Positions 30,361 through 62,671 are shown, counted from the stretch's first letter. The stretch: 64,000 nucleotides of DNA from Patescibacteria group bacterium (GCA_038062115.1 JBBTXS010000004.1:69009-133008), one strand, 5' to 3'. Translations and numbers: made by a program. The notes: generated by a model not told the origin, from the sequence alone.

Positions 30361-30909
30361 ATGAAAATAGGAATTGATATAAGTCAGCTTGCGTATGAGG
30401 GAACAGGGGTTTCCTCATTTGTTGCAAGATTGGTTGAGGATTTGTTGAAGATTGATAGTAAAAATGAATATATTTTGTTTTTTTCGTCCCTGCGGAAACA
30501 ATTTCTAATTTCTAATTTCAAATTTCTAAATAAATCCCAAATCCAAAACCCCAATTTAAAAATTAAGGAGTTTAGGTTTCCGCCGACCCTGCTTGATATT
30601 TTATGGAACAGACTTCATATTCTACCGATTGAGTGGTTGATTGGGGATGTTGATATTTTTATTACTTCCGATTGGACAGAGCCGCCGACAAGAAGCGCTA
30701 AGAAGGCGACGATTTTGTACGATTTAATTGTTTACAAATACCCAAACGAAACAGATAGAAAAATTGTTGAGACGCAAAAGAGAAAGCTTAAGTGGGTAAA
30801 AAAAGAAACAGATATTATATTTTGCATCTCAGAGGCAACAAAAAAAGATGCTATAGAAATATTAGGGATTGAAGAGAGTCGTTTAAAAGTTATTTATCCA
30901 GGAATTTAA
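30361..30909 (+). pseudogene. GT4 glycosyltransferase, N-terminal domain only (C-terminal catalytic half missing)
   Basis: MKIGIDISQLAYEGTGVSSF...VIYPGI then a stop. The full-length paralogs at 38270, 47727 and 59477 continue for about 200 aa after the equivalent (Y/S)(P/E/G)G(I/V) position. Its stop codon interlocks with the convergent enolase stop on TTAA. Confidence 0.6.
30500..30564. repeat. composite repeat: AATTTCT/AATTTCA heptamers + AAATAAATCCCAAATCC tail; in-frame
   Basis: Read directly. Translates as QFLISNFKFLNKSQIQNPNLKI. The 14-mer AAATAAATCCCAAA is shared with 48289-48302. Confidence 0.8.
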
Positions 30910-32171
30910 CTCATTTGGTCTAATTCTCTTTTGATCTTAAGTAAGCGATTATATTTTATTACTCTTTCCCTTGCAGGAGCCCCGAATTTCACAAAATCCG
31001 CACCAACACCAATTGCAAAATCTGCAATAAATTCATCCATAGATTCTCCGCTTCTGTGGGACACAATAATTTTTAGATTATTCAAATGCGATGTATTGAC
31101 AACATCCAAAGCCTCGCTAATTGTTCCTATTTGGTTTGGTTTTATTATTATGCTATTTATAACGTTTTTGCTTATTGCTTGTTTTAGTCTTTCTGGGTTT
31201 GTGACAGTTAGGTCATCTCCAACAATAAGCGAATTCTGAGATAATTTTTCAAAACCTTTTTGCCAAGAGCTCCAATCATCTTCCGAAAAAGCGTCTTCTA
31301 AGTAAACAATATTAAAGTCCAATATCAGTTTTTGATATAACTTAGTAAGCTCTTCTGGATTGTAAGGCGTCGCCTTGTCTTTTAGAAGATATTGTTTTTC
31401 TTTATAGAAAGACGTAGAGGCTGCATCTATTCCCAAAGAAACATCCAAAGATAACTTGTAGCCTGATTTATTAATTACATCTTTCATTAATCGTAATGCT
31501 TTCATGTTGTTAGAAAAATTGGGAGAAAAGCCTCCTTCAATGGAGGTAAGTGTTGATAAACCTAATTCCAAAAGCTTGTTTTCTAACAAGTGATAAATAT
31601 TAACGCCTATTTCAATTTTTTCTTCAAAAGTTTTTGACGAAGAGGGTATAAGAAGGATTTCCTGGAAATCTATAGAATTATCTGCATGTTTTCCTCCAGC
31701 CAGCATTACAAATAAAGGAGTTGGATTTTTGTTAACGGTTTTATTGTTAGAAGCTAATTTATTAATATAAAGATATAACGGGAGAGATGAATTTTTTGCA
31801 CCTGCTTTGGCTACTGCTTGGGAAACAGAAAGTATTGCATTAGCCCCGAGTTTGCTTTTGTCTTTTGTGCCATCAATCTCTATCATTAAATTATCTATTT
31901 TTTGCTGATCGCCAACATAAACACCTAAAAGCTTTGGAGATATTATTTTGTTTACATTTTCAACAGCCTTAAGTGTGCCATAACCCCCATAACGTTTACT
32001 TTCAGTATCTCTTATTTCGTGCGCTTCGTATTTTCCTTTTGAGGTGCCAGATGGAGAGGAAGAGGAGGCAATAATATCATTTGAAAGAATCACAGTTGTT
32101 TCTACCCCACCATAACCTTTTGAATTTAATACTTCTTCAGCGAAAATTTTTTTTATCGTAGCCATAATCAC
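30906..32171 (-). CDS. eno: enolase (phosphopyruvate hydratase)
   Basis: IKKIFAEEVLNSKGYGGVETTV, SGTSKGKYEAHEIRD, SHRSGESMDEFIADFAIG, KFGAPARERVIKYNRLL. The start is either GTG 32171 (GTGA overlap) or ATG 32165. Confidence 0.9.
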   Translation of the reverse strand: MIMATIKKIFAEEVLNSKGYGGVETTVILSNDIIASSSSPSGTSKGKYEAHEIRDTESKRYGGYGTLKAVENVNKIISPKLLGVYVGDQQKIDNLMIEIDGTKDKSKLGANAILSVSQAVAKAGAKNSSLPLYLYINKLASNNKTVNKNPTPLFVMLAGGKHADNSIDFQEILLIPSSSKTFEEKIEIGVNIYHLLENKLLELGLSTLTSIEGGFSPNFSNNMKALRLMKDVINKSGYKLSLDVSLGIDAASTSFYKEKQYLLKDKATPYNPEELTKLYQKLILDFNIVYLEDAFSEDDWSSWQKGFEKLSQNSLIVGDDLTVTNPERLKQAISKNVINSIIIKPNQIGTISEALDVVNTSHLNNLKIIVSHRSGESMDEFIADFAIGVGADFVKFGAPARERVIKYNRLLKIKRELDQMS

Positions 32172-34438
32172 CTCTTGCCCTGTTCGATATTATATATAAC
32201 CCTTCGGGTTTTATTGATCACATCCGGAGCAACAGATACACTATCAATACCCCAGCGTATCAGGTTTTTGACAAGCTCAGGATAATTTGACGGAGCTTGC
32301 CCGCATATAGAGCAAAGTATTTTATATTTGCTGCATGTTTTTACTATTTTCTCAATCGCTATTTGGACTGCTTTGTTCATTTCATTAAAAGACTCTGTTA
32401 GTTTGCTATTGTCTCTATCAACACCCAAAACCAGCATGGTTAAATCATTTGACCCAATAGACACGCCATCAATTCCTACTTTTATAAAATCTTCCAAGAT
32501 TATAAAATTCGATGGGATTTCTGCCATCATATACAATAATAAATCTTTGCCCCTTTTAAGCCCAGATGCGGCAATAATTTTTTTGACCTCAATGAGCTCA
32601 TCAACTGTTCTTACAAAGGGGAGCATGATGTTTAGATTGGTAAGTTTTTTTACGTTTCTAACGTACTTTATGGCCTCAAGCTCCAGCATGAATACATCTT
32701 TGTCATGAATATATCTTGATACGCCACGGTATCCAAGCATTGGATTTTCTTCTTGCTCTTCATATTTTTCTCCACCAATAAGACCCCTATATTCATTTGT
32801 TTTAAAATCAGTTGTCCTAAAGATTACTGGCCTTGGATAAAAAGCTCCACAAATAGTTGCTAGATCCTTTGCCAAACTATCAGTAAAAACTTTTCCCTTA
32901 CCCTCACTTATTAATTTTTTTGGATGAATTCCAATTCTTGCTACCATAAATTCTGCTCGAAGGAGTCCAATGCCATCAACATTGCCTTTTGCAACCTCAA
33001 CTGCTCTTTGGGGTTCTGCAATATTTACAAAAACTTTTGTTTTGGTTTTAAGTTTGGCTGCTTCTGTATCTTCTTTTTTCTCGCTTTTTATAGATATAGC
33101 GCCTTCATAAACTTTTCCTGTATCACCAACTACTGTAATCTTCATTCCGTCTTTTAATATAGATAAAGCATTTTGGGCACCAACTATTGCTGGAATTCCA
33201 AATTCTCTAGAAACAATTGCGGCATGGGATGTTCTTCCTCCTCTTTCTGTAACAATTGCGGATGATTTTTTCATAATAGGAACATAATCAGGATTTGTAT
33301 AAGGAGCAACAAGAATATCATGAAGCTTAACTTTATCAGCGTCTTTTATGCTTTTGACTATTTTAACCTTTCCTATTGCAACACCTGGACTTGCAGGATC
33401 GCCTGTCAGAATTGGTTCTGGAAGTTTTGATGTTGAGAGTGAAATATTGTTTTTTTGATTGTTAATTGTTAACTGTTTATTGTTAATTGTTGTCACAGGT
33501 CTTGTCTGGACGATATAGAGAGTTTTTCCTTCCTTCGCCCATTCAATATCTTGAGGATAATTGTAATGCTTTTCAATAAGTTTTCCTAAACTTGCAAGTA
33601 AAACTATATCTCCATCTTCTAGTTTTTGACGTGAACCTTTACGGCTAGTTAATCTTATATCTTTATTTTCTCCATTTTGAAGCCTTAACATATTTTTTTG
33701 CGGTTCTACTTTTTTTGCCACAATTTTTAAAGAATCCTTGTTTACTTCGTAGTGATCTGGTGTTACTTTTCCTCCAACTATATATTCGCCTAGCCCGTAA
33801 ATTGCTTCGATTGCTATAGTCTTCCTATCATGCGTTACTGGATCTATTGTAAACATTACGCCAGAAGATTTTGAATCAACCATTTTTTGGACAACTAAAG
33901 ATATAGCAACTTTATTATCGTTAAGTTTATTTTCGTGTCTGTAAAACATAGCCCGTGCCGTAAAAAGCGATGCCCAGCCACCCAAAATTGCTTTGGTTAA
34001 GTTTTGGTTGCCTGAAACGTTAAGAAATGTCGCTTGCTGGCCTGCAAACGATGCGGTTTTTGAATCCTCGGATGTTGCAGAAGATCTTACTGCCACATGC
34101 GCATTTTCTCCTAGTTTTTTATAATGCTGCAAAACTGCATCAAGTATTTTAGGACTAATTGTTCCTCTTACAATAACATCTTTAATTTTTTTTGAAGAGT
34201 TGCTTAAGGAGTTTGGATCTTTATAATCTGTAGATTTCATTATTTTTTGTATTTTTTGCTTGAGATTATTTTCTTTTATGAACGTTTGATAGGCAGTTGA
34301 TGTTATAACAAAGCCATTGGGGATTGGAAAATTTGCTCTTAGCATTTCGCCAAGATTAGCAGCTTTTCCTCCGACATATGGAGCGAGCCTTTTGTCTATT
34401 TTGGACAGCCACAAAACAAAATCTTTTTGAGCGTTCAT
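32168..34438 (-). CDS. ppsA: phosphoenolpyruvate synthase (pyruvate, water dikinase)
   Basis: 756 aa. N-terminal PEP/pyruvate-binding domain (VGGKAANLGEM), swivel domain GGRTSHAAIVSREFGIPAIVG, C-terminal TIM barrel (GIGLLRAEFM, SIGSNDLT). A repeat-derived insert sits in the linker. Confidence 0.85.
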   Translation of the reverse strand: MNAQKDFVLWLSKIDKRLAPYVGGKAANLGEMLRANFPIPNGFVITSTAYQTFIKENNLKQKIQKIMKSTDYKDPNSLSNSSKKIKDVIVRGTISPKILDAVLQHYKKLGENAHVAVRSSATSEDSKTASFAGQQATFLNVSGNQNLTKAILGGWASLFTARAMFYRHENKLNDNKVAISLVVQKMVDSKSSGVMFTIDPVTHDRKTIAIEAIYGLGEYIVGGKVTPDHYEVNKDSLKIVAKKVEPQKNMLRLQNGENKDIRLTSRKGSRQKLEDGDIVLLASLGKLIEKHYNYPQDIEWAKEGKTLYIVQTRPVTTINNKQLTINNQKNNISLSTSKLPEPILTGDPASPGVAIGKVKIVKSIKDADKVKLHDILVAPYTNPDYVPIMKKSSAIVTERGGRTSHAAIVSREFGIPAIVGAQNALSILKDGMKITVVGDTGKVYEGAISIKSEKKEDTEAAKLKTKTKVFVNIAEPQRAVEVAKGNVDGIGLLRAEFMVARIGIHPKKLISEGKGKVFTDSLAKDLATICGAFYPRPVIFRTTDFKTNEYRGLIGGEKYEEQEENPMLGYRGVSRYIHDKDVFMLELEAIKYVRNVKKLTNLNIMLPFVRTVDELIEVKKIIAASGLKRGKDLLLYMMAEIPSNFIILEDFIKVGIDGVSIGSNDLTMLVLGVDRDNSKLTESFNEMNKAVQIAIEKIVKTCSKYKILCSICGQAPSNYPELVKNLIRWGIDSVSVAPDVINKTRRVIYNIEQGKR
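33445..33491. repeat. 7-nt array (coding-strand AACAATT family, about 6 units), in-frame in the ppsA interdomain linker
   Basis: The plus strand reads TATTGTT..GATTGTT AATTGTT AACTGTT TATTGTT AATTGTT. Translates on the minus strand as TINNKQLTINNQKNN. Confidence 0.8.
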
Positions 34439-34961: not shown

Positions 34962-34983
34962 CATTTATGTTATTATTTTTGCT

Positions 34984-38269: not shown

Positions 38270-39472
38270 ATGTTGATTGGTATTGACGGCAACGAGGCTA
38301 ATGTAGAAAAAAGAGTTGGGGTTGGAGAATACTCCTTTGAACTACTTCGGCAGCTCAAAGAATCTAGAATTCAGAATCTAGAATTCAGAATCTATTTAAA
38401 AAGAAAACCTCAAGATGATTTTCCAAAAGAATCCACAAACTGGCAATATCGAATTATCGGACCGCGCAAACTGTGGACGCAGATAGGATTACCATTTGAT
38501 TTGTATTTCCATAAACCAAAACCCGATGTGTTTTTTACACCCACCCATTATGCTCCACGCTTTTCTCCTATTTCAACTGTAATTTCAGTAATGGATTTAT
38601 CCTACATCCATTTTCCTGAGATGTTTAAACCTTCAGATTTGTATCAGCTTAAGAATTGGACGGGATATTCAGTGAGAAATGCAAAAAAGATCTTAACTAT
38701 CAGCAGAGCCAGTAAAGATGATATAATCAAATTGCATCAAGTGTTAGAAGAGAAGGTGGTAGTTACTTATCCAGGAATAAAAGTCAAAAGTCAAATGTCT
38801 CCGCCAAAGGCGGATCAGCCTCTGGCTGAAAAATCCAAAATGCAAAGTTCAAAAGTGCTTAAAGAAAAATATAAGATTGAAGGGGATTATATTTTGTTTG
38901 TGGGGACGCTGCAGCCGAGGAAGAATATTGTGAGGCTTATTGAAGCATTCTCAAGGATTATACACCCCCGAGGTGTGCGTGCCGTCGCAAACCACCTCGG
39001 GGGTGGCCGAATGGACTCCCCCGAGGTGAACTATTTGGTCATTGTTGGTAAAAAGGGATGGTTATACGGGGAGATATTTGAGGCTCCTAAGAAGTTTGGA
39101 GTAGAAGATAGAGTTAAGTTTTTAGATTTTGTTCCCGATGAAGATCTTCCTCTTTTTTATCAAAATGCTCTTTGCTTTGTTTTGCCAAGTCTATATGAAG
39201 GGTTTGGTTTGCCGGTTTTGGAAGCAATGCAATACGGCTGCCCTGTAATTACAAGTAATGTCAGTAGTCTTCCCGAGGCAGGAGGAGATGCGGCACTTTA
39301 TGTAAATCCGCTGGATGTTGAGGACATTAAAAAAAATTTAGAATTCATAATTCAGAGTTCAGAATTACGTAAAAAGCTTATCGAAAAAGGATATAAACAA
39401 GTTAAAAAGTTTAGTTGGGAGAAAACAGCGAGAGAAACTTTGAGCGTATTGGAGGACGTGGCGAGAACTTGA
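38270..39472 (+). CDS. glycosyltransferase family 4 carrying four in-frame repeat-derived segments
   Basis: [42 protein letters not shown]. Paralog of 47727 and 59477. Confidence 0.85.
38363..38390. repeat. 7-nt array TCTAGAA TTCAGAA x2 (perfect 14-mer x2), in-frame
   Basis: Read directly. Translates as [10 protein letters not shown]. Only this reading frame of the array lacks stops. Confidence 0.85.
38780..38857. repeat. 78-nt composite: AAAGTCA heptamers, twin GC hairpins TCCGCCaaaGGCGGA + TCAGCCtctGGCTGA, then AAAATSC-type heptamers; in-frame (26 codons)
   Basis: Read directly. Translates as [26 protein letters not shown] in the interdomain linker. Confidence 0.8.
38963..39031. repeat. 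GC-rich 69-nt element, copy E1, in-frame (23 codons)
   Basis: CCCCCGAGGTG (38965-38975) and an identical copy (39018-39028) are both perfectly complementary to CACCTCGGGGG (38993-39003). Translates as [23 protein letters not shown]. Confidence 0.8.
39337..39364. repeat. 7-nt array TTTAGAA TTCATAA TTCAGAG TTCAGAA, in-frame
   Basis: Read directly. Translates as [11 protein letters not shown] near the C-terminus of the GT4. Confidence 0.75.
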
Positions 39473-39475
39473 ATT

Positions 39476-40042
39476 ATGAATAATGAATTAGAAATTAAGG
39501 TTAAAAACAGAATCAAGACAATTTTGCTGGAATTTGCAGTTATGAAATTGCATTTTGTTGGTTTTGTGCCTTCACATCATTTCCGTAGATTTTTCTATAG
39601 ATTAGCTGGAATAAAAATTGGTAAAGGATCAACACTCCATACAGGTACAAGATTTTATAATCCATCTAATATAGAAATTGGGCAAGATTCTATTATTGGT
39701 GAGGGAACTGTTTTAGATGGGAGAGATAAACTAATAATTGGCAATCATGTTGATATTGCCTCAGAAGTTATGATTTATAACTCCGAACACGATGTGCAAA
39801 GCGATGATTTTCGTGCAGTTACTGCACCGGTAATAATTGAAGACTATGTTTTTATCGGTCCTCGTGCAATCATTTTGCCAGGGGTTAAAATCGGTAAAGG
39901 AGCAGTAATTGGGGCTGGGGCTGTGGTTACAAAGGCTGTTAAGAGTTTCGCAATTGTTGGAGGTGTGCCTGCACAAAAGATTGGAGAAAGAAAGATTAAA
40001 GATCTTAAGTATAAATTAGGAAGAGCGGCGTGGTTTAGATAA
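39476..40042 (+). CDS. hexapeptide-repeat (LbH) sugar O-acetyltransferase, WcaF/maltose-acetyltransferase-like
   Basis: IGKGSTLHTGTRF..IGQDSIIGEGTVL..IGNHVDIASEV..IEDYVFIGPRAIILPGVKIGKGAVIGAGAVV hexapeptide repeats. Confidence 0.8.
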   Translation: MNNELEIKVKNRIKTILLEFAVMKLHFVGFVPSHHFRRFFYRLAGIKIGKGSTLHTGTRFYNPSNIEIGQDSIIGEGTVLDGRDKLIIGNHVDIASEVMIYNSEHDVQSDDFRAVTAPVIIEDYVFIGPRAIILPGVKIGKGAVIGAGAVVTKAVKSFAIVGGVPAQKIGERKIKDLKYKLGRAAWFR

Positions 40043-40141: not shown

Positions 40142-41035
40142 ATGACATTTCTATCAATAGTTATTCTTTCCTATAACACAAAAGACTTAACGCTTTCTTG
40201 CTTGCAATCGTTGATAGAACAATACAGAAAGGAGTTAAAAAGTGGGACGGTTGAGATTATTGTTGTTGATAATGCGTCAACTGATGGCTCGGTAGAAAGT
40301 ATTAAGTATTATGTATTAAGTAGTAAGTATAAAGACGTTAGATTAAGGGTTATAGAAAATGACGAGAATTTGGGGTTTGCTAAGGGTTGTAATATAGGGG
40401 CAAAAAAATCAAAAGGGAAATATATTCTTTTTCTAAATTCGGATACACAAGTGCTAGACAAGGGTTTTTTGAAAATGATAGGGTTTTTAGATAGTAATCA
40501 AAAAGTTGGAATTTTGGGAGGAAGGCTTTTAAATCCAGACAATTCACCCCAACCATCTGCTGGAAAATTTTACAATCTTTTTAATTTATTTTTAATGCTT
40601 ATAGGTAGCGAAAGATTTGGATTACTCCGTAAAAGTCCCAAAAATATTGAAAGAGTTGATTGGGTAAGCGGAGCATGTTTGATGATAGGGAAAAGCGTAT
40701 TTGATCAACTAAAGGGATTTGATGAAAATTTCTTTATGTATATCGAAGATATGGAACTGTGCTTTAGAGCAAACAAACTTGGTTTTTTAACTTATTTTTA
40801 TCCAGATATCAAGATAATACATAAAGAACTTGGAAGTAGCAATCGGTCTTTTGCTATAATACACATCTATAAAGGGCTTTTGTATTTTTACTCCAAGCAC
40901 AAAGGTTACTTTCAATATATTATTGCCAAAGTAATGCTAGAAGTGAAAGCTAAAGTCGGAATTGTTGTCGGTTTCCTTATTGGCAATTCTTCCTTAAAGA
41001 AAACTTACATTGAGGCAATAAAATTTAAGATATGA
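40142..41035 (+). CDS. glycosyltransferase family 2
   Basis: LSIVILSYNTKDLT, VVDNASTDGS, LGFAKGCN, LFLNSDT, FFMYIEDMELCFR. Confidence 0.85.
   Translation: MTFLSIVILSYNTKDLTLSCLQSLIEQYRKELKSGTVEIIVVDNASTDGSVESIKYYVLSSKYKDVRLRVIENDENLGFAKGCNIGAKKSKGKYILFLNSDTQVLDKGFLKMIGFLDSNQKVGILGGRLLNPDNSPQPSAGKFYNLFNLFLMLIGSERFGLLRKSPKNIERVDWVSGACLMIGKSVFDQLKGFDENFFMYIEDMELCFRANKLGFLTYFYPDIKIIHKELGSSNRSFAIIHIYKGLLYFYSKHKGYFQYIIAKVMLEVKAKVGIVVGFLIGNSSLKKTYIEAIKFKI
40299..40333. repeat. 7-nt array GTATTAA GTATTAT GTATTAA GTAGTAA GTATAAA, in-frame
   Basis: Read directly. Translates as SIKYYVLSSKYK directly after the DNASTDGS motif. Confidence 0.85.
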
Positions 41036-44000
41036 AAATACTCAGATTTGTTTGGAACAACATTTTATTTTTTATCTCACTTTTTTTGCTTGTCTTTGTT
41101 CCTCTTTACCCAAAATTGCCAATTTTGGATGTACAAAATACGTGGGTTTATGTCCGAGTAGAAGACTTTATTATTACATTTGTAATTCTTATATGGATTG
41201 TTTTGTTTTTGTTTAAAAAAATAACGATCAATACTCCGTTAACCCTACCTATTCTATTATTTTGGATTACTGGCGGAGTATCTCTTCTTCATGCGGTTTT
41301 GGTTATTTTTCCGACCATTGCCAATGTGTTTCCTAATGTTGCATTTCTAAGTTTTTTGCGAAGAATAGAATATGTCTTTCTATTTTTTGTTGCATTTGCT
41401 GGAATGAGGGATAAACGACTCATATATTATATTATTTACGCACTGCCAATTATCCTTCTTGTTGTAGTTGGCTATGGTTTTGGTCAAAAATTCTTTGGAT
41501 TTCCAGCGTTTTTGACAATGAATGAAGAGTTTGCGAAAGGAGTACCAATTCAGCTTTCGCAGTTGTCCAGGGTTCCTTCTACGTTTGCCGGCCATTACGA
41601 TTTAGCAGCGTATTTGGTTTTACTGATTCCAATTCTTGTAAGTTTAGCATTTGGTTTTAAAAATTGGCTTATAAAGATTTTTTTGTTGGGAGTTTCTTCT
41701 TTAGGATTTGTTCTGCTTTTGGAGACGGTATCTCGAGTTTCATTCTCCGTTCTTTTACTTGCTTTGGTAATGCTGTTAATTTTTCAGAAAAAAAGATTGG
41801 TTATTATTTCTCTTTTTGTGCTGACAGTTATATTATTAATTTTATCTCCAAGTCTTTTGCAGCGTTTCGGAAGTACAGTTTCGGAAATTGATGTTTTGGT
41901 GGACGCAAAGACAGGAAGAGCAATAGGTCATGTTACAGAAGTTCCATCTTTGTACTTTGAGGATAAAATTGTTTTGAGAGATTTTGCTCAAAGTGAACAA
42001 AATCCAAAACTTGCCACATCCTCCGCAATTGTTCCAAAGCTTCTTATTCCATCGCCCGCTGTACTTGTTACAGAACCAAACGAGTCCACAGGCGAAAATC
42101 TGCCGCAAGGAACAAGCTATATAAATCTTCCGCTTTCTCCAGTTGTTAAAAAAGTTAATCAATATTTTTATCAAAAAGCAAAAGAAAACAATCCCGAGCA
42201 ATCAACAAAGATTTATATGCTGTATGGAGATTTTCTTATAAAAAAAGCCAAAGCTTACGATCTCTCTTTTACTACAAGATTTCAAGGAGAGTGGCCAAAA
42301 ACCATTACCGCGTTTATGAGAAATATTTTTTTAGGAAGTGGCTATGGGTCTGTTAGTCTTGCTGTTGACAATAATTATCTTAGAATTCTTGGAGAAACCG
42401 GGATTCTTGGGCTTGTTTCATTTCTTTCAATATTTATAGTTGCAGGAATATTCATTAAAAAAATATTACCAGTTGTTGCGTCCCCAGTTGTTAGAAGTTT
42501 TGTTTTAGGATTTGTTGCTGGAACATTTGGACTTTTTCTAAACGCCATCCTAATAGATGTTTTTGAGGCATCGAAGATCGCTTTTTCTTATTGGCTTTTG
42601 ATGGGGGTAACTCTTGGAATTCTAAACTTACACAAAAGTGTAAATGTAGATATTTATAAAGAATTTAAAAACTTGATAACTTCTACCTATGCGATTGTTA
42701 TTTATCTTTTTATTTTAACTATATCTTTATACTTCTCTCTCTCCAATTATTATTTTACAGGCGATGATTTTACATGGTTTAGATGGGTCTCTGATTGTTG
42801 TAATGGTCTTGCTAACAACGGAATTGTTGATTATTTTACCAACGCGAATGGATTTTTCTACAGGCCAGGTACAAAAGTGTATTTTTTTCTTATGCATTCG
42901 GCTTTTTGGCTTAACCAAACAATGTATCATTTGGTATCCCTAATTTTGCATTTTTCCGTTGCGGCTCTTTTGTTCTTGATCTTAAAAAGAATATTAAAGA
43001 ATTATTTTTTGTCTGCGGCAGCGGCTATTGTTTTTCTTATTTTAAGTGGGCATCATGAAGCAATTTTTTGGATTTCCGCAACAGGCTTTCTTTTTAATGC
43101 TTTTTTTGCCCTTTTGAGTCTTCTTTTCTTTATTTACTGGAAAGAGAATAAAAAAAATATATACCTTTTAATTGCTTTTGTTGCAGTTTTTTTAAGCCTG
43201 CTGTTTCACGAGCTGGGCGTTATAGCGCCTTTACTTATAATCCTTTATGATTCTGTTTTTGGGGAAAAATTCAGCCTAAGCAATTTATATAAAAAATCCT
43301 ATTATTATATTTTGATTTTTCCGATAATCCCTTATTTGATTTTACGCTTTATCGCAAAAAGCCATTGGTTTAGCGGAGATTATAGTTATAACATTTTTAA
43401 TCTTCCTTATAATTTTATTGGGAATACAATGGGTTATTTGGGACTTTCTGTTTTTGGGCCTTTGTTTTTAACAATATATAATAGCATCAGAAATTTTTCT
43501 AAAGGAAATTTAGGGATAGCATTATTAGCATCAATAGTAATAATTTTCGCAGCTTTCTTTCTATGGAAATGGCTTATGAAAGCTTTGACAAAGGATGATA
43601 GCAGGATTGTTGTTTTTGGAGTCCTGTTTTTTGCAATTTCCCTGTTACCGTTTTTGGGACTGGGAACAATAACTTCCCGCTATAGTTATCTTTCCTCGGT
43701 TGGACTTGCAATTCTTTTAGCATTTTTTATTAAAAAACTATATAAGTATTTGATATTGAGCAACGAGAAGTACATTGCTGTTTCGATAGTTACTATAATA
43801 GTAATAATATTTTTAGCTAATCAGGTTTTTCAATTACAAAAAATAAATTCAGATTGGAAAACAGCAGGCGAGAAATCTAAAAGATTTGTTGTATCTCTTG
43901 AAGAAATGTACGAAAGAGAATGGAAAAATGACTCTCTAAAATTTTATTTTGTTGATGTTCCCATACGCAATGGAGAAGCATGGATATTTCCAGTAGGGTT

Positions 44001-44187
44001 ACCAGATGCTGTGTGGCTGCTTTTTCGCAATAAAAATATTGATATTTACCAATTACGTTCGCTTAAAGAGGTGATAGGCTCTGTAAAAGATCCGCGGACA
44101 GAAAAGGTGTTTGAATTTGACGAACAGGGAGGGGTTGTTGAAAGAAAAAAAGCGCAAGATGGGAGTGTTATCCCCATAGATAAATGA
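41032..44187 (+). CDS. fusion protein: Wzy_C/O-antigen-ligase-like N-terminal half + GT-C (PMT/TMTC-like) C-terminal half
   Basis: 1051 aa. The N-half has VDNNYLRILGETGILGLVSF (Wzy_C signature region). The C-half has YFTGDDFTWFRW, HHEAIFWISA and FHELGVIAPLL, typical of PMT_2/DUF1736-type mannosyltransferase-like proteins. Confidence 0.55.
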   Translation: MKILRFVWNNILFFISLFLLVFVPLYPKLPILDVQNTWVYVRVEDFIITFVILIWIVLFLFKKITINTPLTLPILLFWITGGVSLLHAVLVIFPTIANVFPNVAFLSFLRRIEYVFLFFVAFAGMRDKRLIYYIIYALPIILLVVVGYGFGQKFFGFPAFLTMNEEFAKGVPIQLSQLSRVPSTFAGHYDLAAYLVLLIPILVSLAFGFKNWLIKIFLLGVSSLGFVLLLETVSRVSFSVLLLALVMLLIFQKKRLVIISLFVLTVILLILSPSLLQRFGSTVSEIDVLVDAKTGRAIGHVTEVPSLYFEDKIVLRDFAQSEQNPKLATSSAIVPKLLIPSPAVLVTEPNESTGENLPQGTSYINLPLSPVVKKVNQYFYQKAKENNPEQSTKIYMLYGDFLIKKAKAYDLSFTTRFQGEWPKTITAFMRNIFLGSGYGSVSLAVDNNYLRILGETGILGLVSFLSIFIVAGIFIKKILPVVASPVVRSFVLGFVAGTFGLFLNAILIDVFEASKIAFSYWLLMGVTLGILNLHKSVNVDIYKEFKNLITSTYAIVIYLFILTISLYFSLSNYYFTGDDFTWFRWVSDCCNGLANNGIVDYFTNANGFFYRPGTKVYFFLMHSAFWLNQTMYHLVSLILHFSVAALLFLILKRILKNYFLSAAAAIVFLILSGHHEAIFWISATGFLFNAFFALLSLLFFIYWKENKKNIYLLIAFVAVFLSLLFHELGVIAPLLIILYDSVFGEKFSLSNLYKKSYYYILIFPIIPYLILRFIAKSHWFSGDYSYNIFNLPYNFIGNTMGYLGLSVFGPLFLTIYNSIRNFSKGNLGIALLASIVIIFAAFFLWKWLMKALTKDDSRIVVFGVLFFAISLLPFLGLGTITSRYSYLSSVGLAILLAFFIKKLYKYLILSNEKYIAVSIVTIIVIIFLANQVFQLQKINSDWKTAGEKSKRFVVSLEEMYEREWKNDSLKFYFVDVPIRNGEAWIFPVGLPDAVWLLFRNKNIDIYQLRSLKEVIGSVKDPRTEKVFEFDEQGGVVERKKAQDGSVIPIDK

Positions 44188-45662
44188 AAAAGATTGAACT
44201 TTTGATATTATTGCTTATTTTAATTGGCGGTTTTTTGGTAAGGCTTTATAGATTTAATAATCCAATTGCAGATTGGCATTCTTGGCGACAGGCAGATACT
44301 TCGGCAGTTTCTAGAAATTTTGTTAAATTTGGGTACGATATCTTGTTTCCCCGCTTTGACGATCTGTCAAATGGCGTATCTCTTTTAGATAATCCTAAGG
44401 GGTATCGTTTTGTAGAGTTTCCTTTCTATAATATTTTGCAAGCTGGTTTTTATCAGATATTCAATCATTTTACAATAGAGCAATGGGGAAGGTTAGTCTC
44501 AATAATTTCTTCTTTAATTGCTGCTGTTTTTCTTTATTTATTGGTAAAAAAACATGTTTCAACACGTGCTGGTTTAATTGCAGCCTTTTTTTATACATTT
44601 GTTCCTTATAACATTTATTATGGAAGAGCCATTATTCCTGATTCATTAATGGTTATGAGTTTTCTTGCTGGTTTGTATTTTTTTGACCAATATCTTGATG
44701 AAAAGGTGAATATTAAGCAATACACTTATTACATCCTAGCAATATTTCTTGTTGCATTATCCCTTCTTATTAAGCCTTTTGTTTTGTTTTTCTTTTTAGC
44801 CTTTTTATATTTAGTATTTATGAAGTTTGGTTTGAAAGGCTTTAAGAAACCAGAGATATGGGTATTTTTTGTTCTAGCTTCTTTACCGTTTTTTCTCTGG
44901 AGAATGTGGATGGAAAACTTCCCAGAAGGAATTCCCAGAAATGATTGGTTATATAACTGGAACAGCATCCGTTTTAAAGGCTCATTTTACTGGTGGATTT
45001 TTGCCGAAAGAATTTCCAAGATGATTCTTGGGTATTGGGGTTTGCCTTTTGTTATTTTAGGAATACTTTTTAAACCAGGAAATCGCGAAAAGTTGCTATT
45101 CTTTACCTTTCTGATATCTTCGCTTATTTATGTTCACGTATTTGCAACCGGTAACGTTCAGCATGATTATTATCAAATTCTTATTACCCCAACTCTTGCT
45201 ATATTTTTTGCAAAAGGAGTTGATGGTGCATTAAAAGCTTCAGGAGAATATTTTAGCTTATGGACTACAAGAGCAGTTATAGTTATTAACATAGTCTTTA
45301 TGTTAATGTTTGGATGGTATGTGATTCGCGATTTTTACGGAGTTCAGCACCCCGCAATAATAGAAGCAGGCAAAGCAGTAGATGAGCTTACGCCAAAAAA
45401 TGCTAAAGTTATTGCGGTTTATAGCGGAGATACGACATTTTTATATCACACTAATCGTCAAGGATGGCCTGTGGTGGAAAGAAGTTTTAGGCAATTTGTA
45501 AATGTAGGGGCAACGCATATTGCATTTGCCAATCCAACAGAAGAAGAACTAAATCTTGCAACTTTATTCGAGCCATTAAAAATAACAGACACGTATGCTA
45601 TTTTTGACCTTAATAAGCCAACCGTCGAGGGCTTGAAGGAATTAAAGAAAAAAGAGAAATGA
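44184..45662 (+). CDS. GT-C glycosyltransferase, ArnT/family 39-like
   Basis: 492 aa, polytopic. The first-loop motif IADWHSWRQADTSAVSRNF is typical of ArnT-like enzymes. ATGA overlap with the upstream gene. Confidence 0.6.
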   Translation: MKKIELLILLLILIGGFLVRLYRFNNPIADWHSWRQADTSAVSRNFVKFGYDILFPRFDDLSNGVSLLDNPKGYRFVEFPFYNILQAGFYQIFNHFTIEQWGRLVSIISSLIAAVFLYLLVKKHVSTRAGLIAAFFYTFVPYNIYYGRAIIPDSLMVMSFLAGLYFFDQYLDEKVNIKQYTYYILAIFLVALSLLIKPFVLFFFLAFLYLVFMKFGLKGFKKPEIWVFFVLASLPFFLWRMWMENFPEGIPRNDWLYNWNSIRFKGSFYWWIFAERISKMILGYWGLPFVILGILFKPGNREKLLFFTFLISSLIYVHVFATGNVQHDYYQILITPTLAIFFAKGVDGALKASGEYFSLWTTRAVIVINIVFMLMFGWYVIRDFYGVQHPAIIEAGKAVDELTPKNAKVIAVYSGDTTFLYHTNRQGWPVVERSFRQFVNVGATHIAFANPTEEELNLATLFEPLKITDTYAIFDLNKPTVEGLKELKKKEK

Positions 45663-46831
45663 GAAAGATATTGTTTCTTACTTATGATTTTCCTTATCCC
45701 GCAAATACCGGGGGCAAGAACAGAGCGTTTAATCTCATAAAGCATGCTAACAAAAACGTAGAGATTCATTTGGCTTCTTTTGTAAGAGATGATTTTAGAA
45801 AAGAATATGAAAAAGAACTAAAAAAAGTAGGAGTTAAGACGATTACGATATTCAAAAGAAGAAAATTAAAAGACATTAGAAATATTAAATTTTTATTTTC
45901 TAAGTCTTCGATCTTTCGACTCCTGTATTATAGAAAAAGCGTTGAAGATTCTATTCTGGATATTGTGAGATCTTTGAAGATAAATGTTGTTCATTTTGAA
46001 TCCTACTACACTTCGTTTTACATTGGGAAAAAGATTAGAGATGTGGGGGCGAAGCAAATATTCGGCACAGAAAACATAGAGCATTTTTTATACAAAGACT
46101 ATGCAAAACACAGCAGTTGGTTGAAGCATTTTATTTTGGATCGCCAAATTAGAAAAATAGAAAATGAAGAGAAGGAATTCTTAAAACTTTCCGATAAAAA
46201 TATTGCTGTAACAGACGATGAGGCAAAGTTTATCCAAAGCATAACTGGTAAAAAATGTAGCATAATTCCAAATGGAGTTGATCTTGATGATTTTACATAT
46301 AATCATCCCTCCAAAAAACTCGCAAACACCCTTCTTTTTATAGGGAATTTTAGTTATTTTCCAAATATTGATGCGATAAATTATTTTTACAACAAAGTTT
46401 TCAAGAAATTGAATGAAAACATAAAACTTTTAATAATCGGAAAAAATGCAGAAAAACTGGATATGTCAAAAGACAGTAGAATTGAAACAATATCTTTTGT
46501 TGAAGACATCAAAGAAGCCTACAATAGAGCTGATATCATGGTGTTTCCAGTTAGGGTTGGAGGAGGAACTAATTTTAAGATACTTGAGGCAATGGCTTAT
46601 GGAATTCCAATAATTGCTGATCCTGCAAGAATCGATAGTTTTGGGGTTAAAGATGGACGCGAGATGTTTTTGGCGAAAACGCCTTTAGAATACGAACAAA
46701 AAATAGATTTACTGCTTAAGGATTTTAGCTTAAGAGAGAAGCTCTCAAAAAATGCTAGGAAACTTGTAGAAAAAGGTTATTCATGGAAACCAATTGGAGA
46801 CAACCTTAATGCTATATGGAAAAACATATGA
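45659..46831 (+). CDS. glycosyltransferase family 4
   Basis: ILFLTYDFPYPANTGGKNR, LFIGNFSYFPN, GGGTNFKILEAMAYGIPIIA. Confidence 0.8.
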   Translation: MRKILFLTYDFPYPANTGGKNRAFNLIKHANKNVEIHLASFVRDDFRKEYEKELKKVGVKTITIFKRRKLKDIRNIKFLFSKSSIFRLLYYRKSVEDSILDIVRSLKINVVHFESYYTSFYIGKKIRDVGAKQIFGTENIEHFLYKDYAKHSSWLKHFILDRQIRKIENEEKEFLKLSDKNIAVTDDEAKFIQSITGKKCSIIPNGVDLDDFTYNHPSKKLANTLLFIGNFSYFPNIDAINYFYNKVFKKLNENIKLLIIGKNAEKLDMSKDSRIETISFVEDIKEAYNRADIMVFPVRVGGGTNFKILEAMAYGIPIIADPARIDSFGVKDGREMFLAKTPLEYEQKIDLLLKDFSLREKLSKNARKLVEKGYSWKPIGDNLNAIWKNI

Positions 46832-47730
46832 ATAAAAAAATTGATGTATCAATTGTTGTAGTTACCTACAACTCGTTTGACACCATAAAAGAATGCATTG
46901 ATTCTATTGAAAAAACCGTTAAAAAAAACTCATTTGAAATTGTTGTTGTTGACAATAATTCATCGGATGGATCCGCAGAGGGTATTAAGTATTATGTATC
47001 AAGTATTAAGTATGAGAACGTTAGAATTATTCCAAATAAAAAAAACATAGGGTTTTCGAAGGCCAACAATCAGGGCGTCAAAATTTCACAAAAAAGCCGT
47101 TATGTTTTGTTTTTGAATCCCGATGCAATCGTTTATGAAAACACTATTGATGGGATGGTGGATTTTATGAACAAAACTCCCAACGCGGGAGCGGCAACGT
47201 GTTTTATAGAGCTTAAAAATGGCAGACTTGACGATTCCTGCCACAGAGGGTTTCCTACACCTTGGAGGTCTTTATGTTATTTTATGGGTTTATCAAAGTT
47301 TTTTCCAAAAAGTAAATTTTTTGCAGGGTATAACATGACCTATCTTGGTCTTAATAAAACTCACGAGATAGATGCTCTGGGAGGGTCTTTTATGCTGATA
47401 AGGCGCGAAATAGGCAAAAGATTGGGTTGGTGGGACGAAGACTTTTTCTTTTATGGAGAAGATATAGACTTTTGTTTTAGAATAAAAGAAATAGGGTATA
47501 AAATATATTTTGTACCCGAATATAAAGCGCTTCATTACAAAGGGGTTTCAAGCGGAATAAAAAAAGTTTCGGAGTCAATAAGCAAAGCAACAAAAGAAAC
47601 AAAACTTTTTGCAACAAAACATAGATTTAACGCGATGCGAATTTTCTACAAGAAACATTATGAAAAAAAGTATCCAAAAATTGTTACGTGGCTTGTTTAT
47701 GGGGCAATTTGGGCTAAAGAACATTTATGA
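46828..47730 (+). CDS. glycosyltransferase family 2
   Basis: VSIVVVTYNSFDT, VVDNNSSDGS, IGFSKANN, LFLNPDA, FFFYGEDIDFCFR. ATG 46828 (ATGA overlap) is preferred over the track start 46816. Confidence 0.85.
   Translation: MNKKIDVSIVVVTYNSFDTIKECIDSIEKTVKKNSFEIVVVDNNSSDGSAEGIKYYVSSIKYENVRIIPNKKNIGFSKANNQGVKISQKSRYVLFLNPDAIVYENTIDGMVDFMNKTPNAGAATCFIELKNGRLDDSCHRGFPTPWRSLCYFMGLSKFFPKSKFFAGYNMTYLGLNKTHEIDALGGSFMLIRREIGKRLGWWDEDFFFYGEDIDFCFRIKEIGYKIYFVPEYKALHYKGVSSGIKKVSESISKATKETKLFATKHRFNAMRIFYKKHYEKKYPKIVTWLVYGAIWAKEHL
46982..47016. repeat. 7-nt array GTATTAA GTATTAT GTATCAA GTATTAA GTATGAG, in-frame
   Basis: Read directly. Translates as GIKYYVSSIKYE. 37 of 42 nt are identical to 40299-40340 by my count. 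Confidence 0.85.
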
Positions 47731-48869
47731 AAATAGGAATTGATGCTAGGCTTTGGAATGAGTCGGGAGTTGGAAAATACACTAGGAATCTTGTTGAACA
47801 GCTTCAGATAATTGATCGCAAGAATGAGTACATGTTGTTTGTTTTAAGTCAAGATAGAAAAAAGATTCTGAATCAAGTTCAGAATGACAATTTTAGCATA
47901 GTAAATGCAGACATAAGGTGGCATACACTGGAAGAGCAGATGAAGTTTTCATCGATAATTAATAAAGAAGATTTGGATTTAATGCACTTTACTTATCCTT
48001 CGGTTCCTATTTTTTACAATAAGCCTTTTATTGTTACAATTCATGATTTAATTTTGCATCATTTTCCGACAGGAGAAGCCTCAACTTTGGCTTTGCCTTT
48101 ATATTATTTAAAGCACTTCGCATACAAATTAGTGATTTTGCAAGCAGCAAAAAAGGCAAAAAGAATTATTGCAGTATCAAAGGCTACAAAAAAGGAGATT
48201 ATTGACCATCTTAGAGTACCAGAAAAAAAAGTAGTGGTAATATATGAAGGGGTAAGTAACGAGATTACAAATCCAAAATCTCAAATTCCAAATAAATCCC
48301 AAAATCCTAAATACAAAATACTTAATACTAAATACTTTTTGTACGTTGGGAATGCATATCCGCACAAGAACCTAGAGCGAATGCTTATGGCATTCGCAAG
48401 TATTAAGTATAGAGTATTAAGTATAAAGTTGGTTTTTGTTGGCAGAGAGGATTATTTTTACAAAAGATTAAAAGAAAAGGTAAAAAATATGGGTTTAGGA
48501 AAATCAGTGAATTTTTTAGGAGAAGTTAGCGATGATGAATTGATCTGTCTTTATAGAGATGCGAGAGCATTAGTTATTCCATCCTTGATGGAAGGGTTTG
48601 GGCTTCCAGCGTTGGAAGCCATGGCAAATAAATGTTTAGTTTTAGCATCAGATATTCCTTCGTTGAAAGAGGTCTGCGGAAATGCGGCAATTTATTTTGA
48701 TCCTTATGGTATTGATGATATATCAAAAAAAATGATAGAGGTTTACTCTAATGACATAAATCATTATAGTAGCAATATCAACAAAGGTTTTGAAAAAACA
48801 AAAATATTTTCTTGGGAGAAAATGACAAGAGAAACTCTAAAGGTATACGAAAGCTGCGTTGGCGGCTGA
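47727..48869 (+). CDS. glycosyltransferase family 4 carrying at least three in-frame repeat-derived segments
   Basis: MKIGIDARLWNESGVGKYT, LYVGNAYPHKN, PSLMEGFGLPALEAMANKCLVLASDIPSLKE. Confidence 0.85.
   Translation: MKIGIDARLWNESGVGKYTRNLVEQLQIIDRKNEYMLFVLSQDRKKILNQVQNDNFSIVNADIRWHTLEEQMKFSSIINKEDLDLMHFTYPSVPIFYNKPFIVTIHDLILHHFPTGEASTLALPLYYLKHFAYKLVILQAAKKAKRIIAVSKATKKEIIDHLRVPEKKVVVIYEGVSNEITNPKSQIPNKSQNPKYKILNTKYFLYVGNAYPHKNLERMLMAFASIKYRVLSIKLVFVGREDYFYKRLKEKVKNMGLGKSVNFLGEVSDDELICLYRDARALVIPSLMEGFGLPALEAMANKCLVLASDIPSLKEVCGNAAIYFDPYGIDDISKKMIEVYSNDINHYSSNINKGFEKTKIFSWEKMTRETLKVYESCVGG
47875..47902. repeat. half-unit of the GTCATT/ATGACAATT palindromic family (hairpin ATTCTGAA-tcaag-TTCAGAAT + GACAATT end), in-frame
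   Basis: Read directly. Translates as ILNQVQNDNF. Confidence 0.7.
48267..48334. repeat. composite repeat: AAATCY heptamers + AAATAAATCCCAAAATCC + four reverse-orientation GTATTAA-family units (TAAATAC AAAATAC TTAATAC TAAATAC); in-frame
   Basis: Read directly. Translates as NPKSQIPNKSQNPKYKILNTKY in the interdomain linker. Confidence 0.8.
48400..48427. repeat. 7-nt array GTATTAA GTATAGA GTATTAA GTATAAA, in-frame
   Basis: Read directly. Translates as SIKYRVLSIK, at the same alignment position as the GC-rich element E1 in the 38270 paralog. Confidence 0.85.
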
Positions 48870-50536: not shown

Positions 50537-50632
50537 AACAACTTTATTGTAAACAAAATATTCAAAGATTGCAAGCGGTTGTGGGTTCGACGGGCTGCTT
50601 CTTATCATGATAAAATAGGCGGAGTATTTACA

Positions 50633-51778
50633 ATGAAAATTGCATTGGTGTATGATCGGGTAAATAAGTGGGGAGGGGCAGAGAGAGTGCTTTTGGCATT
50701 GCATGAATTATTTCCAGATGCACCTATTTACACTTCGGTTTACAATCCAATAACTGCATCTTGGGCTAAAACTTTCGATGTTAGAAGTTCATTCTTGCAG
50801 AAATTTCCTTTGGCATCTATAGCTCATGAGTTATATGCGGTCTTGATGCCCATTGCCTTTGAAAGTTTTTCTTTTGACCAATATGATCTTGTAATTTCAG
50901 TTACGAGTGAGGCTGCAAAAGGGATAATAACCAAACCAAAAACAAAGCATATTTGCTATTGTCTAACTCCAACCCGTTATCTTTGGAGTGCTTACGATGA
51001 TTACTTTAGAAATCCCTTATTGCGATTTCTATCAAAACCAGTAGTTTCGTATCTTAGGACTTGGGATAAAATTGCAGCGCAAAGGCCAGATGCGTACGTT
51101 GCAATTTCTCAAGAGGTCAAAAGAAGAATTAAAAAATATTATGGGAGAGAGTCAGTGGTTGTATACCCGCCAGTAGACATCAGTAGTATGTATCATGTAT
51201 CAAGTATTAAGTATAAAAAAAATGCAAATGAAATACATAATACAAACTACATACTACATAATACTGTCGATTACTTCCTCATCGTCTCTCGGCTTGTTCC
51301 ATACAAACGAATTGATATTGCGATTAGAGCATTTAATAAGCTTAGACTTCCATTAAAAATTATTGGCGTAGGGTCACAAGAAAAGTATCTTAAAAGCATC
51401 AGTAGCCCAACTATAGAATTCCTTGGCAACTTGACTGAAGATGAGTTAGTAAGCTATTATAAGGGATGTCGTGCTTTAATTTTTGTAGGTGTTGAAGATT
51501 TTGGTCTTACTGTTTTGGAGGCACAGAGTTTTGGAAAACCCGTGATTGCGTTTCGCGGAGGCGGTACACTGGAGACTATAAAAGAAGGAAAAACTGGTGA
51601 GTTTTTTAGTCAACAAAATCCAAAATCACTTACAGATGTGCTTAAAAGATTCGATGAAAGAAAATATAAAAGTACTGACTGCATAGAGAATGCTAAAAAG
51701 TTTTCGTTTGAAAGATTTAAAGAAAAGCTTATGGATGTCGTTGCGAGGAGTTTAGCGACGAAGCAATCTCAAATTTGA
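50633..51778 (+). CDS. glycosyltransferase family 4
   Basis: MKIALVYDRVNKWGGAERVL, FLIVSRLVPYKR, VGVEDFGLTVLEAQSFGKPVIA. Start trimmed from 50579 to ATG 50633. The last 14 codons and the stop lie inside a palindromic repeat. Confidence 0.85.
   Translation: MKIALVYDRVNKWGGAERVLLALHELFPDAPIYTSVYNPITASWAKTFDVRSSFLQKFPLASIAHELYAVLMPIAFESFSFDQYDLVISVTSEAAKGIITKPKTKHICYCLTPTRYLWSAYDDYFRNPLLRFLSKPVVSYLRTWDKIAAQRPDAYVAISQEVKRRIKKYYGRESVVVYPPVDISSMYHVSSIKYKKNANEIHNTNYILHNTVDYFLIVSRLVPYKRIDIAIRAFNKLRLPLKIIGVGSQEKYLKSISSPTIEFLGNLTEDELVSYYKGCRALIFVGVEDFGLTVLEAQSFGKPVIAFRGGGTLETIKEGKTGEFFSQQNPKSLTDVLKRFDERKYKSTDCIENAKKFSFERFKEKLMDVVARSLATKQSQI
51183..51265. repeat. composite repeat: five GTATYAA-family units, A-rich spacer, four TACAWAM units; in-frame
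   Basis: Read directly. Translates as SSMYHVSSIKYKKNANEIHNTNYILHNT. Same architecture and orientation as 20416..20483. Confidence 0.85.
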
Positions 51779-62509: not shown

Positions 62510-62671
62510 AAAATTTGGAGTGGCGGTGCTATCCGTGATTGTCCTAGACTCAGTAGCGAGTGTTCCACTCGGGAGCATCTAGGCACTAGATAGCTTATTA
62601 TTACCAACTCCGAATAAAACTATATCATTTCCTAGAGTGTTTTGCAATAGGCAAATTATTCATATTTTCAA

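Follow-up and report, generated by a model that had tools for sequence, protein, structure and literature searches.

Period-7 repeat arrays shared by two glycosyltransferase genes of a Patescibacteria group bacterium belong to a lineage-wide class of in-frame heptanucleotide repeats

Results

Two GT2 genes share an array that is better conserved than its surroundings

The DNA examined is a stretch of 64,000 nucleotides from a Patescibacteria group bacterium (GCA_038062115.1 JBBTXS010000004.1:69009-133008), referred to here as the window. It matches contigs from Hainich groundwater, and among named organisms Candidatus Levybacteria come nearest to it. From end to end the window forms a surface-glycan cluster, with genes for GT2 and GT4 glycosyltransferases, PMT_2, epimerases, methyltransferases, Wzy and a Wzm/Wzt transporter. 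Two of its GT2 genes, GT2a and GT2b, contain an imperfect tandem array of a 7-nt unit at the same position of the encoded fold. We consider it probable that both arrays are heptanucleotide microsatellites of an AAGTATT family, members of a class of about 32 nt and 4-5 units that pervades Levybacteria and other Microgenomates and of which stop-free variants are kept, and that the segment carrying them has been exchanged between the two paralogs. In-frame heptanucleotide arrays of this kind are a lineage-wide variant of the known bacterial heptamer repeats. The genes and arrays, with unit counts from Tandem Repeats Finder (TRF), are as follows:

40142..41035, plus strand: GT2a, GT2 glycosyltransferase of 297 aa; open reading frame (ORF), PF00535/PF13641, AlphaFold2 (AF2) model with pLDDT 90
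40297..40334, plus strand: GT2a array, imperfect (AAGTATT)n, 5.4 units, translation SIKYYVLSSKYK, encoding helix alpha2, aa 52-65
46828..47730, plus strand: GT2b, GT2 glycosyltransferase of 300 aa, PF00535; alternative start 46816; deposited as MEK7533887.1
46982..47013, plus strand: GT2b array, imperfect (GTATTAA)n, 4.6 units, translation GIKYYVSSIKY; same structural site as in GT2a
22328..23356, plus strand: third GT2, array-free at the corresponding site; internal control

The assignment of the host genes to the GT2 class (GT-A fold) is based on Pfam matches to PF00535, NCBIfam matches and the AF2 model (pTM 0.88). In both genes the array starts two codons past the motif DNxSxDGS (DNASTDGS in GT2a, DNNSSDGS in GT2b), and both arrays are 83-84% periodic and interrupted (TRF). 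An earlier note on this DNA had counted 37 matches in 42 positions over the two arrays and the 7 nt that follow, and this count was reproduced exactly (40299-40340 against 46982-47023). Random 42-mer pairs drawn from GT2a and GT2b match at 11.8 positions on average; the next-best pair scores 32 and contains the conserved DNxSxDGS motif itself. By eye, the note had put the shared residues at roughly a third; in a codon alignment the proteins are identical at 35% of residues and the genes at 51% of nucleotides overall. Against this 51%, the 11 array codons are identical at 30 of 33 nt (91%), although much of this value arises because the arrays share unit and register. In the same alignment, nucleotide identity inside and outside the arrays differs with p = 3e-6, and codons for the same residue are identical in 8/8 cases within the array compared with 48/85 (56%) elsewhere (Fisher p = 0.02), so that the claim of a repeat better conserved than its flanks withstood the codon-aware comparison. 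The third GT2 reads DNNSSDGSCEFIKTNYQKVILIENKENYGF at this point, without an array, and is as ordinary there as had been described. What had to be given up is the view of the arrays as a peculiarity of two paralogs, since they are one case of a lineage-wide class of heptanucleotide repeats.

Period-7 arrays pervade the window and its relatives

With our own scorer, 11 period-7 arrays were found in the window against 0.13 expected from shuffles, with none for every other period from 4 to 13; a TRF listing gives some twenty. All 11 scored arrays lie inside real, translated ORFs, namely those of a 691-aa membrane protein, four GT4 genes, the two GT2 genes and a phosphoenolpyruvate (PEP)-utilising enzyme. 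Tandem 7-nt units in at least 3 copies and in above-chance excess place them among the bacterial heptanucleotide simple sequence repeats (SSRs). Arrays of the AAGTATT type occur in five different window genes. This unit presents TAA in all three frames, (AAGTATT)n reading K-Y-stop-V-L-S-I in each, and the departures from the perfect repeat fall mainly at the TAA codons, which have become TAT in both GT2 genes and CAA, AGA, CAT, AAA or GAG elsewhere. The translations are stop-free: SIKYYVLSSKYK and GIKYYVSSIKYE for the GT2 arrays, and SSIKYQVL, ASIKYRVLSIK and MYHVSSIKYKK in other genes.

The survey was extended to relatives, all loci being taken around glycan gene clusters (individual loci are cited by L number). 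Among 80 GTDB loci around GT2a orthologs, the period-7 arrays were confined to Levybacteria, Roizmanbacteria and other Microgenomates; these loci had no arrays of other periods, and GT2 loci from outside the candidate phyla radiation (CPR) had close to zero arrays. Metagenome loci around GT2b orthologs, 816 kb in total, yielded 152 arrays of period 7, while each of the other periods from 4 to 12 gave between 0 and 7. The pooled 1.67 Mb of related loci held 224 arrays, 67 of them perfect, with lengths peaking at 31-34 nt (about 4.5 units). On the coding strand the units are rich in A and for the most part lack stops. Outside ORFs there are 25 arrays, all at gene junctions, and these intergenic arrays also peak at about 32 nt. 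Arrays of one genome had units in common at 2.8 times the frequency seen in shuffles (p = 5e-4), and AAGTATT-type arrays dominate L132. At orthologous sites both the unit and the length of the array vary among relatives, perfect arrays included, which is the pattern of concerted evolution in SSRs.

Heptanucleotide repeats are the most over-represented long microsatellites of bacteria, and a general heptamer excess was reportedly described by Mrazek et al. in 2007. The known cases (cyanobacterial STRR, Xanthomonas GGGAATC, Nostoc GGGGA(C/T)T and Beggiatoaceae TAACTGA) have a strict period of 7, few to several copies and a lineage-specific abundance; some form inverted pairs or overlap stop and start codons, and length and sequence vary among relatives at each locus (PMC4692102; PMC4679880). 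The arrays described here resemble them in strict period, lineage-specific abundance, inverted pairs, stop/start overlap and locus variation. However, the known repeats are overwhelmingly intergenic with one dominant unit per genome, whereas here 199 of the 224 arrays lie within ORFs, in frame and translated, and each genome has dozens of units. There is almost no intergenic space in these genomes, and repeats are thus pushed into genes. No description of heptamer repeats in CPR bacteria was found in our literature search.

The encoded peptide sits at a recurrently struck, tolerant site

When array-bearing ORFs of relatives were placed onto the window proteins, a number of hot spots emerged, each with many different units. 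These were GT2b aa 49-54 (18 loci), GT2a aa 51-55 (7), the 182-aa GT4 N-domain protein w30361 at aa 46-47 (20), PMT aa 172-180 (20), and the GT4 genes 45659 at aa 204-212 (17) and 47727 at aa 44-50 and aa 176-207 (20 each). Small GT4 and GT2 genes are array-rich within the surveyed glycan loci, and among the same loci no arrays were found in the 1051-aa membrane protein (41032..44187) or the acetyltransferase (39476..40042). In orthologs of GT2a and GT2b, the GT2 site alone is occupied by arrays of 10 or more different heptamer units. The earlier note had left three causes open, of which one was insertion at a preferred site; the preference for the site stands, while recent independent insertion is doubtful (see below).

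The peptides at this site form a mosaic in orthologs of both paralogs (SIKYYVSSIKY, ISNLKSQISNLK, ISNFKFQISN, IQNSEFRIQNFK and others), and array-free GT2 orthologs have an ordinary VEMVKKEFPxV helix there. The spacing from DGS to NxGF is 16-18 aa in array-free proteins versus 21 or 23-24 aa in array-bearing ones, and some orthologs differ in length by 7 aa, equal to 3 units (for example SIKYKNIKII versus SIKYYVSSSKYKNIKII). In the AF2 model of GT2a the array forms helix alpha2 and the next loop (DSSP H50-59, H61-63), a surface helix with the lowest pLDDT of the N-terminal domain. The encoded peptide is, on this model, probably a tolerated surface helix only.

A rival reading would place selection on the protein: both enzymes would require a heptad-like SIKYYVSSIKY, and the likeness of the DNA would follow from codon bias. 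It is true that SIKYYVSSIKY recurs in many orthologs of both families and that a heptamer array always encodes a 7-residue periodic, helix-capable peptide. However, orthologs carry unrelated peptides at the site (ISNLKSQ, IQNSEFR, FQFSIFN, PITNHQP) or none, the region is the least confidently modelled of its domain, and the paralogs use identical codons, the rarer AAG included. Furthermore, in the decaying copies of L012, L100, L115 and L135 synonymous and non-synonymous changes accumulate together, which argues against protein-level selection. We regard this reading as very improbable.

The array segment is likely to have been exchanged between the paralogs

The interrupted 33-mer with the TAT change that removes the stop was found only at the GT2 site and in a single intergenic array that directly precedes GT2a in L032. 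In the GT2b orthologs of L095, L097 and L099 (59-83% protein identity) it is identical at 31-33 of 33 positions, and wherever the residue is the same the codon is too, compared with about 50% elsewhere. Between the window GT2b and those of L099 and L097 (59% amino acid identity), array codons for the same residue are identical in 10/10 and 9/9 cases, compared with 48-57% elsewhere. Synonymous sites are therefore frozen both between the paralogs and among GT2b orthologs of 59-67% protein identity, indicating conservation at the nucleotide level; to this extent the proposal in the earlier note of constraint on the nucleotide sequence holds, while a function for that sequence is less well placed (see below).

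That note also proposed gene conversion. Genomes with arrays in both paralogs carry like kinds (the window, L115, L144 and L147), and the variable segments of GT2a and GT2b are 83% identical within L115, 78% within L144 and 76% within L147. Similarity of this segment is greater within than between genomes (permutation p = 5e-5 for 26 genomes, uncorrected for relatedness). The window, L115, L118 and L162 rank 1/26 in within-genome similarity, and identity profiles peak at the segment, which is thus bounded by lower similarity, as a converted tract would be. The candidate segment is about 100 nt long and is flanked by motifs conserved for protein reasons. The resemblance of paralog arrays within a genome favours intragenomic exchange, and gene conversion between the paralogs is likely, judging from these sequence comparisons.

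Together, these data can be accommodated by the following mechanism. A DNA-level process with a 7-nt register, such as slippage or intra-array conversion, would create the arrays and keep them repeat-like, and selection would pass only in-frame, stop-free variants at tolerant sites. The two paralogs share a strand and are separated by 6.7 kb, and a swap between them of the segment from DNxSxDGS to NxGF would then have given the shared interrupted 33-mer; exchange of this segment among related genomes is also likely. The GT2 array segment would, on this account, not be an ancient stretch of protein under purifying selection.

Several points weigh against this account. The interruptions (TAT, TCA) are conserved across genomes, which fits poorly with free, ongoing slippage and better with a conserved or recently spread sequence. 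The window pair alone is weak evidence of conversion, with 3 mismatches compared to the 3-5 that unrelated AAGTATT arrays show against the GT2b 33-mer, and the within-genome permutation test ignores how the genomes are related. Slippage alone leaves unexplained why period 7 prevails over the ORF-friendlier 3, 6 or 9, and equally why intergenic arrays peak at about 32 nt. A match between 7 nt and the contact of the polymerase has been suggested, according to passages of PMC4692102 and PMC4679880 that cite Mrazek 2007. Finally, sampling confined to glycan clusters makes tolerance and targeting inseparable.

In-gene arrays appear to leave their genes intact

Heptamer arrays in genes for surface-glycan glycosyltransferases could be contingency loci, that is, slippage-prone frameshift switches as in neuO of Escherichia coli K1 and phage CUS-3. 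Here, too, the 7 nt of the unit are not divisible by 3, 67/224 arrays are perfect, the genes that carry the arrays encode glycosyltransferases and PMT within a glycan cluster of 64 kb, and a conserved location with a free unit sequence is the expected mark of selection on mutability. The neuO array (AAGACTC) similarly lies within the coding sequence of a surface-glycan-modifying enzyme and encodes a 7-residue periodic peptide in frame (PMC13001214). However, it lies in the 5' coding, N-terminal part, has 3-53 repeats, is OFF in 65.6% of genomes, about two thirds, and switches measurably (PMC13001214). In the present class the copy number is about 4.5, none of 192 arrays is clearly OFF, and the location is in internal loops.

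In detail, the genes around 183 of these 192 mapped in-gene arrays are full-length on both sides, 8 arrays are in genes cut by a contig end and 1 is doubtful, so that at most one array (0-1/192) is out of frame and ON and OFF frames were not found side by side. None of the 25 non-ORF arrays marks a frameshifted gene. The narrow length range, without long uninterrupted tracts, the mid-gene rather than 5' location and the interruptions in both GT2 arrays also speak against switching. Among 14 population contigs from different samples the arrays were identical, these being consensus assemblies that report the majority allele only. The GT2b gene of L001 is split into two ORFs and was considered as an array frameshift; the split is in fact a 10-N scaffold gap 130 nt downstream of an identical array. 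As no in-gene array clearly breaks its gene, phase variation is unlikely, and we hold out little prospect for it.

Small PF05635 genes of relatives are enclosed by heptamer arrays

In eight relatives (L132, L117, L014, L021, L032, L157, L175 and L176), small genes of the four-helix-bundle family PF05635/TIGR02436, annotated as "23S rRNA intervening sequence protein" and Avd-like, lie between genes of the glycan cluster. These CPR cassettes have inverted heptamer arrays on both sides, with octamers instead in one clade; the unit differs from cassette to cassette, and one arm in L132 has 24 units. The cassettes are located at:

L132:539-980 and L132:10924-11478
L117:1042-1485
L014:7870-8300
L021:200-650 and 2500-2950
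L032:7720-8160
L175:2960-3400
L176:1420-1900 and 2960-3420

The association extends well beyond this group. Plasmid homologs (L186-L199) from eleven cyanobacteria (genera Nostoc, Calothrix, Aulosira, Anabaena, Stanieria, Geminocystis and Pseudanabaena), Riemerella, Azospirillum and Gemmatirosa have period-7 flanking arrays, mostly inverted. Overall, the best flank periodicity was 7 or 8 in 42/48 flanks of PF05635 genes, with 34 of these scoring at least 9. In Coxiella, the intervening sequence (IVS) of 23S rRNA has tandem GACAGAT heptamers before the S23p ORF, with an RNase III site at the first repeat (PMC4990558). The IVSs with S23p/PF05635 ORFs of Coxiella and Leptospira resemble the cassettes in that the PF05635 genes of relatives also lie within complementary arms. 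They differ in that the cassettes lie between protein genes of operons rather than in rRNA, and the window has none. In the literature, the Coxiella case was the only link found between IVS-protein (IVP) genes and heptamers, and no general statement of this architecture was found. The classical cyanobacterial heptamer repeats may likewise be tied to four-helix-bundle genes. In Pseudanabaena and Anabaena 90, a four-helix-bundle gene was observed between cas6 and cas4.

In L117 and L132, in-ORF arrays of adjacent genes share their unit with the cassette arms, which suggests, circumstantially, that the coding arrays are related to the cassettes. A tentative proposal, to which we give roughly one chance in four, is that heptamer arrays are cis-elements of a widespread, undescribed PF05635/TIGR02436 cassette (a gene related to Avd, a DGR protein, with inverted heptamers or, in one clade, octamers), the in-ORF arrays of Levybacteria being solo or derived arms spread by conversion into neighbouring genes. 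If so, elements of this kind would be the shared source of the long-noted excess of heptanucleotides in bacteria (STRR, GGGGATT, TAACTGA and others).

Other explanations for the likeness of the arrays

The arrays might instead have a function at the level of the nucleotide sequence, as cis-acting DNA or RNA elements in a 7-nt register under purifying selection, with the coding sequence accommodating them; candidate roles are sites at which a multimeric protein binds nucleic acid, or the arms of stems recognised by RNase III. Synonymous sites frozen across orthologs of 59% identity, the use of the non-preferred lysine codon AAG throughout the arrays and the preference for about 32 nt in coding and intergenic arrays alike would all be expected of such elements. 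Four inverted pairs of the AAGTATT type inside window ORFs fold as hairpins (z -2.6 to -5.0), inverted heptamer arrays stood beside the PF05635 gene in 24/24 cases examined, from five phyla, and the RNase III site of the Coxiella IVS is at the first heptamer (PMC4990558). On the other hand, units differ widely within a genome and between genomes at a single site, so that no single sequence-specific reader fits. The GT2 arrays, moreover, lack an inverted partner, and shuffled sequences fold as well as they do (z +0.7 and 0.0), which led us to reject DNA or RNA structure for them, and they lack the palindrome of a Rickettsia palindromic element (RPE); nor was any IVP gene found within the window. 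Such a function therefore appears unlikely, if less so than frameshift switching. The arrays do not correspond to a known RNA family, the sole Rfam match in the window lying elsewhere (see below). A slippery-site origin was also rejected, as AAATTTC fits X XXY YYZ and most units do not.

Another possibility is that a small mobile repeat was inserted recently and independently at one site in both genes, the similarity reflecting the youth of the copies. RPEs, dispersed elements of 100-150 bp with a conserved consensus, are said by Ogata et al. (2000) to be selfish repeats inserted in frame in protein-coding genes. As with RPEs, in-ORF repeats are tolerated here at surface-exposed, permissive sites of reduced genomes with little intergenic space, without frame disruption as judged from the AF2 model and the full-length ORFs, and some copies are palindromic (hairpins with z -4 to -5). 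AAGTATT-type arrays in five window genes and their dominance in L132 would suit a mobile repeat, as would the use of this unit in the arms of IVP cassettes at neighbouring junctions of relatives, the small GC hairpin elements inserted at array hot spots and the 7-aa presence/absence differences among relatives at the GT2 site. Unlike RPEs, however, the arrays are tandem 7-nt repeats whose only family consensus is the period, the units being diverse, and the GT2 arrays are not palindromic. The array replaces an ancestral helix rather than simply adding to it (MVKKEFPDVKL versus SIKYYVSSIKYKNIKI), and neither target-site duplications nor defined termini were found. The TAT change is confined to copies at the GT2 site (and the one intergenic array of L032), pointing to copying between GT2 genes rather than to new insertions of a master copy. 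Independent insertion is, on balance, rather improbable. Target-site duplication was also considered as the origin of period 7 itself and rejected, as no element ends or excision footprints were found; to our knowledge, a 7-bp duplication is not typical of any insertion sequence family.

Implications

Selection on frame and stops would here expose an underlying DNA-level process. Period 7 is retained where 3, 6 or 9 would be far cheaper, and the same protein loops are recurrently struck. A repeat sequence can also surpass the surrounding enzyme in conservation. The host group consists of ultra-small groundwater bacteria that tolerate hundreds of in-gene 7-base repeats at a few recurrent surface sites. 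For annotation, this explains low-complexity inserts (SIKYYV.., ISNLKSQ.., IQNSKFK..) in CPR glycosyltransferases, and these inserts should not be taken as functional motifs or as evidence of recent duplication. The association with PF05635 genes is a testable lead on the origin of heptamer repeats, from CPR to cyanobacteria, Bacteroidota, Azospirillum and Gemmatirosa.

Further arrays and other features of the window

Other period-7 arrays of the window are:

19731..19762, plus strand: (AAATTTC)n, in frame in the 691-aa membrane protein, NFKFQISNVKY
19847..19917, plus strand: inverted pair (TGTATTA)n / (ATACTTA)n in the ORF of the 691-aa membrane protein; hairpin of -18.2 kcal/mol, z -4.5
20414..20482, plus strand: perfect (AAGTATC)x3.9 (SSIKYQVL) and partly complementary (CATAATA)n in the 691-aa ORF; fold z -2.6
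30500..30554, plus strand: (AATTTCT)n and (AAATCCC)n in the 182-aa GT4 N-domain protein; hot spot aa 46-47, in 20 other genomes
33458..33491, minus strand: (ATTGTTA)n in plus-strand reading, in the PEP-utilising enzyme 32168..34438 (minus strand), TTINNKQLTINNQ, end of the PPDK_N domain
38359..38394, plus strand: (AGAATCTAGAATTC)x2.6 in the GT4 gene 38270..39472, RIQNLEFRI
38779..38860, plus strand: (AAAAGTC)n broken by two small GC hairpins (TCCGCCAAAGGCGGA, TCAGCCTCTGGCTGA), in the interdomain linker of GT4 38270..39472
39335..39366, plus strand: (AATTCAG)n close to the C-terminus of GT4 38270
39470..39488, plus strand: (TGAATAA)n spanning the stop of GT4 38270 and the start of acetyltransferase 39476
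48268..48337, plus strand: (CAAATCC)n then (AAATACT)n in the linker of GT4 47727..48869
48398..48429, plus strand: (AAGTATT)n, ASIKYRVLSIK, inverted partner of 48302-48336; fold of -35.7 kcal/mol, z -5.0
51188..51264, plus strand: inverted pair (GTATCAA/GTATTAA)n / (AATACAT)n in the linker of GT4 50630..51778; fold of -19.2 kcal/mol, z -4.2

The GT4/acetyltransferase junction at 39470-39488 also bears arrays in L009, L147 and L132. In L009:9398-9426, L017:16668-16694 and this junction of the window, the array takes in the stop of one gene together with the start codon of the next, and the unit in L009, AGGAATT, resembles a reiterated Shine-Dalgarno sequence. The short spacer directly upstream of the GT2a start codon (40111-40141) holds an array of period 8/16 (CAATTTAG x3.6), and the orthologous spacer of L032 carries an AAGTATT-type heptamer array.

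The 182-aa ORF at 30361-30909 corresponds only to the N-terminal half of a GT4 fold and ends at the interdomain linker (..VIYPGI*), coinciding with the array position of full-length GT4 genes. In relatives its counterpart is followed by an IVP cassette and then by a complete GT4.

Two families of tiny GC-stem hairpins, YCCGCC-N3-4-GGCGGR and CCCGCCTTCGCCAAGGCTTCGGCGGGCAAGC (encoding RLRQGFGGQA), occur in frame at array hot spots, often in the middle of a heptamer array. They resemble the small dispersed repeats that are nested in heptamer repeats of cyanobacteria. The loci are:

window 38800-38829
L160:109-139, L151:7267-7297, L008:8753-8783, L101:2793
L106:1642, L111:12272, L032:10199, L116:910, L024:11978

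GT4 38270..39472 also contains, at 38963-39028, a GC-rich palindromic insert (CACCCCCGAGGTG / CACCTCGGGGGTG / CTCCCCCGAGGTG) that is read in frame as 22 residues; the genome otherwise has 33% GC. A scan for GC-rich islands returned mostly ordinary Gly/Pro/Arg-rich coding sequence, from which only 38963-39028 and 38800-38829 stand out. Small pairs resembling toxin-antitoxin systems lie within the glycan cluster at 34614-35259 and 36059-36611 (Gp49 with a helix-turn-helix protein; DUF5615 with DUF433). The sole match in an Rfam scan of the window at gathering thresholds was a DUF3800-V RNA at 62516-62612 on the minus strand (49 bits), which adjoins the DUF3800 gene 61814..62482.

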